A DNA stretch of 39,344 nucleotides from the UHGV virus genome UHGV-0031292, one strand, 5' to 3'. The DNA comes from a virus. A program made the translations under genes and the position numbers. The notes beneath the pieces were generated by a model, which did no database searches, was not told where the DNA came from, and was given only the letters and a program-made list of their open reading frames with translations. Position 1 is the first letter of the stretch; each line of letters opens with the position of its first letter. Positions 5,367-8,799 of the stretch are shown here, piece by piece.

Positions 5367-5951
5367 TTATTGTTTGCTTTTTTCGTTCTGGTTGATGACA
5401 AATTCAATGTAACTTTCGATCTTTGCTTTCTCGGTTTCGGGTAACAATGCGTAGCGCGAGCGGTCATAGTTGATGGTCGCAGGGTCGTGCGGGTGAATCA
5501 GTAATTCATAGCCGTGACGCCCGAATGCGGATGCAACATTCTCCAGGGTGGAAATGGAAACGCTGACCTCATTGTTTAACAGGCGGCTGATTGTCACCTG
5601 GGCGACGCCGGATGCGCGGTGAAGTTTTCCCTGTGTTGAAAGGTCGCGGCTTTCGCTCATCCAGCGTTCCAGGTTGTGAGCCGCCAGTTGACCAATGTCG
5701 CTTGGTCCGACAGGCTGAAAACCTTCCTGAGAAAGCGAGCGATCGATATCAAGCCAGTTACGGGGTTTATTGGCGGCAGCTTCAATTTTTCGTGCAACCT
5801 GGTCGCCGATAACCTTCTTGCCAAGAGCCCAGCGGTTTACCAGATTTGCCTGAGTTCCAAGTTTTTCAGCCATCCGCGTCTGAACACCATTGAATTCACG
5901 GTCGATCAAGTCGTTGAGATTTTGCCTGCGGACGTCCTGGATACTTTTCAT
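5367..5951 (-). CDS. Prophage repressor (CI-like) with two tandem HTH_XRE domains and no recognisable S24 autocleavage domain
   Basis: 194-aa ORF divergent from cro; two HTH segments (QTRMAEKLGTQANLVNRWALGKK... and HRASGVAQVTISRLLNNEVSVSISTLENVA). Confidence 0.65.
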   Translation of the reverse strand: MKSIQDVRRQNLNDLIDREFNGVQTRMAEKLGTQANLVNRWALGKKVIGDQVARKIEAAANKPRNWLDIDRSLSQEGFQPVGPSDIGQLAAHNLERWMSESRDLSTQGKLHRASGVAQVTISRLLNNEVSVSISTLENVASAFGRHGYELLIHPHDPATINYDRSRYALLPETEKAKIESYIEFVINQNEKSKQ

Positions 5952-6006
5952 TTTCTGGAAAATCGCCTCATATCTGAATCAGAAGATGATTCAATTTAAA
6001 GCAATA

Positions 6007-6068
6007 TTACCCAACAGGTAAATGCACCTCATGGGTAACTATCCTTGATTTTTGTTACCTTATAGGTG
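6007..6068. promoter_or_regulatory. OR-like region: three tandem palindrome copies (6007-6021 exact; 6024-6038 and 6054-6068 variant) between repressor and cro
   Basis: TTACCCAACAGGTAA, GCACCTCATGGGTAA, TTACCTTATAGGTGA in the 154-bp divergent intergenic region. Confidence 0.7.
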
Positions 6069-6105
6069 AATATTTATTATCTGAAATAAATATCAGGCAA
6101 TAGCT

Positions 6106-6336
6106 ATGAGCGATAACGGACATTTCGATTTCAAAAAGCACTGGCTTGCACTTACTCCGGATGAGCGTGAAGCCTTCGCACAGGAAGCCGGAACGACGAG
6201 TCACTATATCCAGACTCACTTAACAGGTAAGCGCAAAATGCCAGGTAAAGTATTGATGAATGGGCTTTTTAAAGCCTGTAAAACAAGACAATGGCTGCGC
6301 TCAAAAGCAGAACTGGCATACTTCTTCTACTCATGA
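6106..6336 (+). CDS. Cro-like small DNA-binding regulator
   Basis: 76-aa ORF divergent from the repressor, just downstream of the OR-like sites; HTH-like segment EAGTTSHYIQTHLTGKR. Confidence 0.5.
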   Translation: MSDNGHFDFKKHWLALTPDEREAFAQEAGTTSHYIQTHLTGKRKMPGKVLMNGLFKACKTRQWLRSKAELAYFFYS

Positions 6337-6360
6337 TATCCATCCACAACCCTCTGTAGA

Positions 6361-6381
6361 CCGCCATCCGGCGGTCTTTTC
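6361..6381 (+). terminator. Intrinsic terminator after cro (CCGCC-ATCC-GGCGG plus TCTTTT)
   Basis: GC stem-loop followed by a short T-run 25 bp after the cro stop. Confidence 0.45.
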
Positions 6382-6391
6382 ATATCTATTC

Positions 6392-6406
6392 GTACCTCAA
6401 AGGTAA
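6392..6406. promoter_or_regulatory. Palindrome copy (variant GTACCTCAAAGGTAA) downstream of the cro terminator
   Basis: Matches xxACC-N5-GGTAA. Confidence 0.45.
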
Positions 6407-6486
6407 TAAAAAACCAAATCTGGTTGATCTTTTTTTTGTGTCAGCACAAAATAACCGTAATCCCAATACTAATAACAGGGCTTACC

Positions 6487-6687
6487 ATGGAAATCATTAC
6501 ACGTATTGATGCCGCAAAGCGCGGACTTAAACGCTACTACACCGGAAAACCATGTAAGCACGGACATGACAGTGAACGCTGGGTTTACAACGGACACTGT
6601 GTTGAGTGCACCATGGAATCAAACCGTCGCATCAGGGCAGAGATTAAGCAGATCATGATTAATTCCTCCCCACAACATTCAAGCTGA
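6487..6687 (+). CDS. Small hypothetical protein with a putative Cys/His zinc-binding motif
   Basis: Likely start MEIITRID; motif KPCKHGH...NGHCVEC. Confidence 0.45.
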   Translation: MEIITRIDAAKRGLKRYYTGKPCKHGHDSERWVYNGHCVECTMESNRRIRAEIKQIMINSSPQHSS

Positions 6688-6702
6688 TAGCGGAGATTAA
6701 TC

Positions 6703-7494
6703 ATGAGCAGACATGCAACAGATTGGGCCTGGGAGACAGATCCAGGTAGCTCGTCATTAAAGCTCATACTGCTCTCGATGGCTGACAGAGCCGATGAATA
6801 TAACCTCTGCTACCCCAGCATAGAACGCCTCGTTAAAGACACTTGCCTGAATAAAAAAACCGTGCAGGCCGGGCTTATATCGCTCATGAAAATGGGGCTT
6901 ATTTCAGATACCGGAGAGAGAAAGGGAGCGACGAAAAGAGTGCGGGTTTTCTCTCTTAATATAACCAAAAACGGGAACATTAAAGGCAACCGGGAAGGGG
7001 GTAATGAACCCGAAAACGGTAATGTTACCGAAAACGGGAATATACCCAAAAACGGGATGTTGAATGATCCCAAAAACGGGATCCAGAACCAGTCATATAA
7101 CCAGTCATTTAACCAAGAGAGGGAGAGCAGGACAAAAAGCGGGGATTCTGTGCCTCATGACCCCGGCGCAAACAACGCCGTGATGAATAACTTTGTTCCT
7201 CCTGGTGGGCCAGGGCAATTAGGCAAATTTGTCATGCATGAACAATGGCAGCCATCAGATGACTTTCTTCGGAAAAGCTCATTGCAGGGGATCTACCTGG
7301 ACAGTCTGCCAACGGCACAGGAGCTTGCAGAGTTCAGAATTTACTGGATGGCTGAGGGTAAGGCATACCATCAGGCACAGTGGGAGCAGAAGCTGGCAAG
7401 GCGGCTGCAGATTAGCAGACAGAAGCAATCAACATTACCTGATAACAACGTTCCGCACTGGAACAGCCCTGAAGCGTGGGAGGATTTCTTGTGA
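6703..7494 (+). CDS. Replication initiation protein (lambda O-like, N-terminal HTH, origin iterons inside the gene)
   Basis: 263-aa ORF with N-terminal HTH-like region; repeated KNGNI-type peptide from internal DNA iterons; followed by and coupled to a P-like gene. Confidence 0.65.
   Translation: MSRHATDWAWETDPGSSSLKLILLSMADRADEYNLCYPSIERLVKDTCLNKKTVQAGLISLMKMGLISDTGERKGATKRVRVFSLNITKNGNIKGNREGGNEPENGNVTENGNIPKNGMLNDPKNGIQNQSYNQSFNQERESRTKSGDSVPHDPGANNAVMNNFVPPGGPGQLGKFVMHEQWQPSDDFLRKSSLQGIYLDSLPTAQELAEFRIYWMAEGKAYHQAQWEQKLARRLQISRQKQSTLPDNNVPHWNSPEAWEDFL
6965..7082. repeat. Putative replication origin: five direct iterons of CC(A/G)AAAACGG(G/T)A inside the O-like gene
   Basis: Copies start near 6965, 7009, 7028, 7045, 7069; three consecutive at about 19-bp spacing. 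Confidence 0.55.
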
Positions 7495-8276
7495 ACAACG
7501 TTTTTACCGCGATACAAAACCGTGACGGAGAAGCCCTTTCTCGCATGTCAGGTTATGAGCATCAGTACGTCAACAATGACAATGTGGTGAACATGTCAGC
7601 AGAGAGGCTTGTTGATGCCCTTTTCAAACAGCTGAAACAACTGTTTCCGGCGGCAGTAGTAACCAACCTGAAGACTCCAGAGCAGGAAGTTGCTGCAAAA
7701 CAGCAGTGGATTGCTGCGTTTGCCGAAGGGGGGATCCGAACCCGTGAACAGGTTTCTGCTGGTATGCGCCACGCCCGCGCCAGTGAATCTCCGTTCTGGC
7801 CGTCGCCAGGGCAATTCATCAAGTGGTGTAAAGACAGCAAGATGGTTCTTGGCGTCACCATTGACGATGTGATGGCGGAGTTTCACCGGTACAGCAAGGA
7901 AAAAAGTTTATATCCTGGTGGTCCCGAAAGATTCCCGTGGCGACATCCGGTTATGTACTGGGTCGTATGTGATACCCGCCGTGCAATGTATCAGCGCCAG
8001 CTTAGCGAGATTGAGGTTGAGAAACACGCGCGCAGGCTGCTCGATGATTGGGCGAAAAAGGTAGCTTCCGGACAGCAGATACCCGATCCGGTGATCAGCA
8101 TACAGGCAAAGCCAGAACCCATGAGTACGCCTCCGGACACAGGGAGAGACGTTTACCATCCACCAGGGCGAAGTTTCGGGTGTATGCCTAACGCCGCCAC
8201 ATTGGGGGGAATAACACCGGCACAGTGGCTGATGGAGGAATACAGGCGGGGAAAGGCGGCAGGATTTATCAAGTAA
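7491..8276 (+). CDS. Replication protein P-like (helicase loader)
   Basis: Recognisable similarity to lambda P (GGIRTREQVSAGMRHARASESPFWPSPGQFIKWCKD); GTG start overlapping the O stop (GTGA), GGGAGGA upstream. Confidence 0.75.
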   Translation: MNNVFTAIQNRDGEALSRMSGYEHQYVNNDNVVNMSAERLVDALFKQLKQLFPAAVVTNLKTPEQEVAAKQQWIAAFAEGGIRTREQVSAGMRHARASESPFWPSPGQFIKWCKDSKMVLGVTIDDVMAEFHRYSKEKSLYPGGPERFPWRHPVMYWVVCDTRRAMYQRQLSEIEVEKHARRLLDDWAKKVASGQQIPDPVISIQAKPEPMSTPPDTGRDVYHPPGRSFGCMPNAATLGGITPAQWLMEEYRRGKAAGFIK

Positions 8277-8314
8277 TACCAGCGCGATAGCGCATTTTTT
8301 TACGCCTTGATAGT

Positions 8315-8390
8315 TACCTTCTGGGTAACAAAATATTCTAAACCATATTGATTTCGTGTCTTATGTGGTTTTTAATTACCTCAGGGGTAA
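8315..8390. promoter_or_regulatory. Two exact palindrome copies (8315-8329, 8376-8390) immediately upstream of the 8394 gene
   Basis: TTACCTTCTGGGTAA and TTACCTCAGGGGTAA; the second ends 4 bp before the ATG. Confidence 0.6.
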
Positions 8391-8393
8391 ATT

Positions 8394-8738
8394 ATGAGAA
8401 AACAGATACAGGCTCTTGGTCGACTCAAAACAGGCCAGATGAACAAAACAGAATCTGCGTATTGCCAGCACCTTGAGTTGCGTAAACGTGCAGGAGAAAT
8501 CGTCTGGTATCGATTTGAGGGTATCAAGCTGCGGTTAGCTGACAACACGTTCTATACGCCCGATTTTGCTGTGATGCTCGCCACCGGCGAGATGGAACTG
8601 CACGAAGTGAAAGGTTTCTGGACCGACGACGCCAGGGTGAAAACCAAAGTCGCCGCAGATCAGTATCCGTTCCGAATCATCGGGGTAACGGTTAAACCAA
8701 AGAAAGCAGGTGGTGGCTGGAACATCGAAGAGTTCTGA
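8394..8738 (+). CDS. Small PD-(D/E)XK-type nuclease-like protein (DUF1064-like)
   Basis: 114-aa ORF with motif TPDFAV...ELHEVKG. Confidence 0.5.
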   Translation: MRKQIQALGRLKTGQMNKTESAYCQHLELRKRAGEIVWYRFEGIKLRLADNTFYTPDFAVMLATGEMELHEVKGFWTDDARVKTKVAADQYPFRIIGVTVKPKKAGGGWNIEEF

Positions 8739-8799
8739 ATCGACGATCTTTTTAGTTATCAATGTAATCAATAAGTTATGTGGATAAGCGAGGGTAAAG

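Follow-up and report, generated by a model that had tools for sequence, protein, structure and literature searches.

In bacteriophage lambda, the replication origin (oriλ) lies inside the gene of the initiator protein O, where direct repeats (iterons) are accompanied by an unwinding tract, and the next gene encodes the helicase loader P (PMC7466680). A comparable arrangement is described here for UHGV virus genome UHGV-0031292, a stretch of 39,344 nucleotides (nt) referred to below as the window, in which five direct repeats lie within the open reading frame (ORF) at 6703-7494. This ORF encodes a predicted replication initiator, and the repeats are probably the iterons of a phage replication origin, located within the gene whose product would bind them.

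The likeness to oriλ extends to several features. In both, the origin comes directly after the part of the gene that encodes the DNA-binding domain (at gene nt 263 here and 349 in lambda), and it is built of directly repeated sites with dyad symmetry, whose TCCC...GGGA arms flank an AAAAC centre (the lambda iterons read ATCCCTCAAAACGAGGGA). A purine-rich tract on the coding strand follows, and the overlapping next gene encodes a P-type loader for which DnaB binding is predicted. The number of iterons also varies between related phages, with four in lambda and six in the Shiga toxin (Stx) phages (PMC7466680). As in the six-iteron Stx-phage origins of 933W and P27, copy number differs among close relatives, and extra copies lengthen the initiator (PMC7466680); however, the initiators of 933W and P27 are true lambda O proteins and their iterons are of the lambda type. 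The window initiator, in contrast, falls outside the Pfam family Phage_rep_O and has a DnaT-type C-terminal domain in place of that of O. Its site is ~3 bp shorter between the arms, the adjoining tract is less AT-rich, and distinct repeats of 10-13 nt occur after the last iteron.

A second relevant system is the DopC/DopE pair, two lambda O/P-like genes domesticated in Cellvibrionales and Oceanospirillales. These genes are chromosomal and resident, are reported without iterons and without origin function, and include a dopC that was called 'λO-like' because of N-terminal homology detected by HHpred (PMC5509034). As in the window, a protein with HTH_36 and DnaT_C domains is followed by a P-like gene (Fig. 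3 of PMC5509034), but the pair in the window is located in a phage genome and its five-iteron array is intact. A prophage version with seven iterons is present in an Oceanospirillales genome (L123).

The C-terminal domain of DnaT forms a filament on single-stranded DNA (PMC13377028). The window protein's C-terminal domain is homologous to residues 85-170 of Escherichia coli DnaT, although a winged-helix domain, predicted to be sequence-specific, stands where DnaT has its own N-terminal domain. Iteron plasmids of the RK2, pSC101, F and P1 type offer a further comparison. In these, an iteron array lies beside short repeats of ~13 nt where the DNA opens; the iterons lie beyond the rep gene, usually lack symmetry, and are recognized by two-winged-helix Rep proteins as monomers. 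The window likewise has an array beside short repeats, but inside the initiator gene. No literature was found on a phiV10/epsilon15-like origin, on HTH/DnaT initiators with iterons, or on the iteron sequence itself, for which the matches were primers and papillomavirus E2 sites, in a search that left most subscription journals outside its reach and may have passed over an earlier mention.

The repeat array and its relatives

A pattern search of the whole window for CCRAAAACGGKA, with at most one mismatch, finds exactly five matches, all on the plus strand and all inside the initiator ORF, as proposed in an initial annotation of this DNA. In 100 dinucleotide-preserving shuffles, the mean number of matches is 0.59 and the maximum is three, and none of the 100 reaches five. 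A repeat search lengthens the copies to 21-24 nt (6957-7082), with a mutual likeness of 71-100%, and the array places its five sites inside 117 nt. The uniform spacing of ~19 bp given in the initial annotation is not what is measured: the start-to-start distances are 45, 18, 18 and 24 nt. The repeated KNGNI-type peptide described there is present, with five in-frame copies that read TKNGN, PENGN, TENGN, PKNGM and PKNGI. In the rest of the window, the core sequence common to the family yields only scattered single matches at up to two mismatches, and no other repeat array is seen in the replication region.

Two sets of relatives were compared. The first consists of individual phage relatives from a phage collection. 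The second comprises 80 diverse prophage loci with 40-87% N-terminal identity, of which 75 genes were analyzed; the hosts are Enterobacterales, Vibrio, Pseudoalteromonas, Marinomonas, Acinetobacter, Burkholderiales, Sphingomonadales and Desulfovibrio. In the first set, phiV10, phiv142-3, PPompW, Vibrio H20, Edwardsiella GF-2 and Acinetobacter AP22 have a common N-terminal domain that is followed at once by an array with the same core, at an N-terminal identity of 35-49% for phiV10, PPompW, Vibrio H20, Edwardsiella GF-2 and Acinetobacter AP22. Tyrion, SPN1S, TL-2011b and Rac YdaU, with only the DnaT domain in common, have no array.

In the second set, all 75 proteins match HTH_36, and a weight matrix with the consensus AGTCCCAAAAACGGGAC detects at least three motif copies in 72 of the 75 genes. 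A motif-free search of the 330 nt that follow the domain identifies, in 64 of 75 loci, 4-12 copies of a single 11-mer family, against an average of 2-3 in control stretches of these loci. Wherever the array is present among the relatives, it starts directly after the part of the gene that encodes the N-terminal domain. Absence of the repeats from related genes, which the initial annotation had given as grounds for rejecting its reading, is thus not what is found.

Reading frame separates conservation of the DNA from conservation of the peptide. Copies occupy more than one frame in 57 of the 72 arrays. Counting spacings up to 30 nt, 88 are divisible by three and 69 are not; the distribution peaks at 17, 18 and 24 nt, and spacings of 17, 22 and 25 nt place copies in all three reading frames. 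In PPompW, GF-2 and H20, one motif stands in two frames and is read as different peptides: PPompW has YTQKRE and TPKNGS, GF-2 has CTQKRD and DPKIGI, and H20 has DPKTE and PENGT. Because the motif is kept as DNA across frames and is linked to the DNA-binding domain, the repeat is, judged from the sequences, a DNA element coupled to that domain, as expected of iterons, and the peptide appears to be a passenger in a disordered linker. The behaviour of origin iterons inside an initiator gene, which had been proposed from the window alone, is accordingly recovered in the relatives.

The initiator and its helicase loader

The initiator has two recognizable Pfam domains, HTH_36 at amino acids (aa) 18-67 (1.7e-10) and DnaT at aa 176-244 (1.1e-15), and it belongs to the PHROG family phrog_1032, 'replication initiation protein' (1.5e-102). 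An AlphaFold (AF2) model built with 94 homologues is confident in two separate parts. The N-terminal part (aa 1-88) consists of four helices and a two-strand wing, with a predicted local distance difference test score (pLDDT) of 94-98, and the C-terminal part is a three-helix domain (aa 172-245; pLDDT 78-93). Between them is a linker (aa 90-170) with a pLDDT of 45-51. A single-sequence model of the same protein had a pLDDT of 37.5 and was discarded. The iterons and the 12-nt repeats that follow them are encoded within the predicted disordered linker (aa 88-140), and because they fall there, the coding region can tolerate both a constraint at the level of DNA and variation in copy number.

The C-terminal part matches residues 85-170 of E. 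coli DnaT (E 6e-21, phmmer against the PDB), and Foldseek aligns it with the single-stranded DNA (ssDNA)-binding domain of DnaT (6aeq/4ou6) at 50-55% identity. In public records, the gene is variously named "primosomal protein", "DnaT-like ssDNA-binding domain-containing protein" and "helix-turn-helix domain-containing protein"; in phiV10 it is a 'putative primosomal protein'. Names of the 'primosomal protein' kind are misleading, because a winged-helix domain replaces the N-terminal domain of DnaT and only the C-terminal domain matches. The possibility that the initiator is a true DnaT orthologue was considered and set aside: only DnaT residues 85-170 align, and the N-terminus is HTH_36. A plasmid-type Rep/iteron system was likewise considered and rejected, since Pfam detects no plasmid Rep family and the array is inside the gene. 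The fold similarity to pSK41 RepA is only weak (E about 0.06).

Whether the initiator is "O-like", as first annotated, depends on the sense in which the term is used. BLASTP finds nothing meaningful between the initiator and lambda O, and the initiator does not match Phage_rep_O (PF04492) even at E<=10, whereas lambda O itself scores 1e-36. A sequence profile of the N-terminal domain has only insignificant matches in the PDB, and an hhalign comparison of 45 N-terminal domains with lambda O gives only 9.8% probability, with a lone sequence as the target. At the level of structure, Foldseek matches to the N-terminal domain are generic winged-helix regulators; among viral models, they include many phage "HTH domain" proteins as well as the Min27 "replication protein O" (1.9e-8) and a "lambda GpO N-terminal" entry (2e-5). 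In addition, phrog_678 and phrog_345 are matched by the N-terminal parts of both the initiator and lambda O. The earlier assignment to a lambda O/P module thus stands for the loader and, at most, for a possible remote N-terminal likeness of fold, and fails for family membership and for the C-terminal domain; "lambda O-like" should be read as presumed O-like working with an N-terminal fold that may be remotely related.

The loader itself is a closer match. The product of the gene at 7491-8276 matches Pfam PF06992 over the whole profile (1.5e-56), is 31% identical to lambda P over 203 aa (5e-36, BLASTP), and has further matches to the PDB entry 8v9t 'Helicase loader' (2e-31) and to phrog_109, 'P-like helicase loader'. 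On these alignments, it can be taken as a genuine lambda P homologue, in agreement with the initial annotation. The C-terminal domain of lambda O is the part understood to contact P. That type of domain is absent from the window initiator, where the DnaT-type domain replaces it.

Anatomy of the putative origin and alternative explanations

Across the family, the iterons have dyad symmetry, with the arms (G/A)TCCC and GGGA(C/T) placed around AAAAAC, and in some clades the sites are perfect palindromes (ATCCCAAAATTGGGAT in GF-2 and GTCCCAACGTTGGGAC in Acinetobacter). Such symmetry suggests that a dimer is the binding form, which has been reported for the lambda and Stx O proteins (PMC7466680). 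Five arrays (L168, L170, L171, L145 and L117) include copies with an inverted centre (GTCCCGTTTTTCC) or a differing right arm (CCCAACGTTCCG), suggesting mixed orientations or half-sites in one array. Iteron 2 of the window (7010-7021) with its flanks contains ACCCGAAAACGGTA, and literature matches to CCGAAAACGG are binding sites of the papillomavirus E2 protein (ACCGAAAACGGT); the resemblance is a chance one between two dyad-symmetric origin sites.

A second repeat follows the array. In the window, its three 12-nt units begin 6 nt past the last iteron core (CCCAAAAACGG, 7069-7079). Units of the GAAYC type, two or three in number, occur in nearly every detectable family member, also 6 nt after the last iteron core, with unit spacings of 12 nt in 35 cases, 13 in 23, 11 in 10 and 10 in three. 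In H20 and L093, the identical sequence GAACCAGTCA is read first as NQS and then as EPV, and because it is read in different frames, the second repeat too is conserved as DNA. Units of the type GAAYCNNYCA occur in the window, in L004, L093, L110, L117 and L136, and in others, and they resemble the right half of the iteron (ACGGAAC). Either of two roles is possible for them, that of an unwinding element or that of additional initiator half-sites. The window repeats coincide with one of the gene's two least stable 30-bp windows; the other is at the left edge of the array. The purine fraction is 0.65 over 7083-7150, compared with 0.73 in the AT-rich tract of lambda. In 44 of 49 loci, the 60-nt tail is AT-richer than the gene, and many relatives continue with an A-rich run.

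A mechanism can be outlined from this anatomy, in which binding, unwinding and recruitment of DnaB are the steps that we infer. The N-terminal winged-helix domain, probably as a dimer in the manner of lambda O, would bind every dyad-symmetric site, (A)TCCC-AAAAAC-GGGA(T). The bound initiators could then assemble a nucleoprotein complex on A-tract DNA that is presumed to be intrinsically bent, and the adjacent DNA, comprising the 12-nt repeats at 7086-7121 and then the purine-rich tract, would be destabilised. DnaT-type C-terminal domains held nearby may bind and stabilise the single strands, and the lambda P-type loader from the next gene would deliver the host DnaB to the opened DNA.

Several points weigh against this interpretation. 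Experimental data on binding, unwinding or origin function were found neither for this phage nor for the initiator family. The window by itself, with its copies all in one frame, cannot tell repetition of the DNA from repetition of the peptide, and the case depends on the relatives. The window's codon statistics (CCC for three of three Pro codons, against 10% of Pro codons in its long ORFs, and GGG for four of five Gly codons, against 17%) exaggerate independence, as the array copies are duplicates. The weight matrix yields 330 matches in gene nt 230-660 (10.2 per kb) and 50 in the rest of the loci on both strands (0.07 per kb), but it was trained on the array zone, so that some circularity enters the density inside this zone, though neither the density outside it nor the motif-free search. 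The downstream AT-rich region that the initial annotation proposed to look for is weak, with 57% AT at 7083-7122 compared with 78% in lambda, and the predicted instability near the 12-nt repeats is modest (-36.2 kcal/mol against a mean of -41.7, or about 1.6 standard deviations).

It may be that selection acts on the protein, and that the DNA repeats are a by-product of a flexible, low-complexity (P/T)(K/E)NG linker grown by replication slippage. Such a linker would account for the shared frame of the five window copies, for shifts in copy number by whole 18- or 24-nt units (from five to 11 copies), and for the predicted disorder of the region. It would not account for a single DNA motif that, in 57 of 72 related arrays, occupies two or three frames and specifies unrelated peptides, for the rare codons in the arrays, for dyad-symmetric and sometimes perfectly palindromic sites, or for the lack of an array in relatives that have another N-terminal domain within the same overall architecture. 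The reading-frame analysis already largely refutes peptide selection, which we regard as very improbable. An even smaller likelihood attaches to the idea that the repeats bind some other factor, from the host or from the phage, rather than the initiator encoded around them. The motif centre is a plain A-tract, which leaves room for such a factor, but the motif tracks the N-terminal domain across Acinetobacter, Vibrio, Sphingomonadales and Desulfovibrio, whatever the C-terminal domain or downstream gene, and no DnaA box is found in or near the array.

A different concern is that the sites are bound by the initiator but serve mainly in regulation, through autorepression, a transcriptional roadblock, titration or copy control, while initiation takes place elsewhere in the genome. 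Plasmid iterons are a precedent, as they serve both initiation and control; the weakness of the adjoining AT-rich tract in this phage and the two lower-stability stretches in intergenic DNA, at 6061 and 8325, point in the same direction. However, a conserved array joined by a fixed 6-nt junction to 10-13-nt repeats, and often to an A-rich run, has the anatomy of an origin, and the AT-richer tail in most loci agrees with this. Moreover, the replication region shows no other repeat array, and the position is that of oriλ within O (PMC7466680). A mainly regulatory role is therefore unlikely, and origin iterons remain the preferred interpretation.

A more speculative extension of the origin model, which as a whole we consider doubtful, makes three connected proposals. 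The initiator itself might open the origin, in a DnaA-like manner of 'bind duplex, then capture single strand'; the iteron-bound domains might line up the DnaT-type domains at the 10-13-nt repeats, where a DnaT-like filament would form before P-DnaB arrives; and the iteron-bearing phage module might be ancestral to chromosomal dopC-dopE, in which the iterons were lost, and a possible source of the C-terminal domain of host dnaT.

Copy number, module exchange and phage context

The number of iterons varies even among very similar phages. Of 78 near-identical IMG/VR contigs, nine have five copies, 59 have six, eight have seven, and one each has eight and nine, so that the five-copy form of the window is a minority allele. 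Database proteins extend the range to 11 copies, with the 5-11 copies corresponding to lengths of 263-311 aa. Most changes in copy number, in the phiV10-like contigs L012-L091 and in P0001-P0120, involve gain or loss of the 24-nt unit adjoining the 12-nt repeats. In the variant P0001, the 45-nt block that contains the possibly decayed copy is duplicated.

The N-terminal domain and its array are joined to several types of C-terminal domain. Among the 75 genes, Pfam identifies DnaT in eight, Phg_2220_C in five and DnaA_N in two; the others, GF-2 apart, are unrecognised. Downstream genes vary as well: 16 of 65 are of the lambda P type, and the remainder include DnaB-type helicases, IstB/DnaC-type ATPases and others. 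The initiator of Edwardsiella GF-2 (L005, 1501-2343) is a chimera in which this N-terminal domain and its iterons precede a C-terminal domain of the lambda O type (62% identity, 2e-67). A P gene comes next. The unit of N-terminal domain and iterons can thus substitute for lambda's own. By BLASTP, GF-2 alone among the relatives examined has the lambda O C-terminal domain. In Enterobacter phage Tyrion (L007), of the same genus, and in L008, L009 and L010, the DnaT-type C-terminal domain is kept, the N-terminal domains are unrelated, these iterons are missing, and P is retained in most. Tyrion DNA becomes similar to the window only towards the 3' end of the initiator gene, which places a recombination joint inside that gene.

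Over 6703-8276, the identity to the Escherichia phages BP9, EC.W1-9, phiv142-3, PAS61 and phiV10 is 96-99%, and a 25-kb block of the remaining window is 97-98% identical to the same Uetakevirus podoviruses over 78-87% of its length. These alignments indicate that the window is a phiV10-like podovirus (Uetakevirus), which bears out the podovirus-like assignment made initially. The features of the replication region are listed in Table 1. The small ORF that precedes the initiator gene occupies the position of lambda cII and has no Pfam match; it is assigned to phrog_1081, the function of which is unannotated. A scan of 5800-8500 for promoters and terminators gives results at chance level, as does the count of DnaA boxes in the window. 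One perfect DnaA box, TTATCCACA, is located at 8779-8787 on the minus strand, ~1.7 kb downstream of the array.

Table 1. Genes and sequence elements in and around the putative origin, with positions counted from the first nucleotide of the window
Feature	Position	Strand	Sequence, remarks or basis
Divergent repressor gene	5367-5951	minus	
Cro-like gene	6106-6336		
Small ORF between Cro-like gene and initiator	6484-6687		Cys/His-rich motif CKHGHDSERWVYNGHCVEC
Replication initiator gene	6703-7494	+	263 aa; putative origin elements inside; ORF, Pfam, PHROG
Part encoding N-terminal winged-helix domain (aa 1-88)	6703-6966	+	Presumed iteron reader; AF2, Foldseek, HTH_36
Iteron 1	6965-6976	+	CCAAAAACGGGA; repeat search and pattern search
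Possible decayed iteron, uncertain	6988-6996	+	AACCGGGAA; lacks A-tract; inside 45-nt gap; sequence reading only
Iteron 2	7010-7021	+	CCGAAAACGGTA; repeat search and pattern search
Iteron 3	7028-7039	+	CCGAAAACGGGA; repeat search and pattern search
Iteron 4	7046-7057	+	CCAAAAACGGGA; repeat search and pattern search
Iteron 5	7070-7081	+	CCAAAAACGGGA; with flanks GATCCCAAAAACGGGATC, best dyad of the array
Three 12-nt direct repeats, candidate DNA-unwinding element	7086-7121	+	GAACCAGTCATA TAACCAGTCATT TAACCAAGAGAG
Purine-rich tract after the repeats	7111-7146	+	Coding strand; GC skew and AT skew both strongly positive
Part encoding DnaT-type ssDNA-binding C-terminal domain (aa 172-257)	7216-7473	+	phmmer, Foldseek, AF2
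Lambda P-type helicase loader gene	7491-8276	+	Start overlaps initiator stop codon; Pfam, BLASTP, PDB, PHROG

The arrangement extends a known design to another initiator family, and the current understanding of such origins stands. It locates a probable replication origin for the phiV10-like (Uetakevirus) phages, which are common prophages of E. coli O157 and Salmonella. It also provides an origin signature for a wide family of HTH_36 initiators, namely an array of AGTCCCAAAAACGGGAC right after the domain-coding part and then GAAYC repeats of 10-13 nt, with a range that extends from Enterobacterales to Acinetobacter, Vibrio and beyond. In this family, the DNA-binding domain moves as a unit with its sites, and the C-terminal domain and the partner that recruits the helicase are swapped, which refines the view of phage replication genes as modular. 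For the domesticated DopC/DopE pair, the window supplies a counterpart that is carried by a phage and has iterons.

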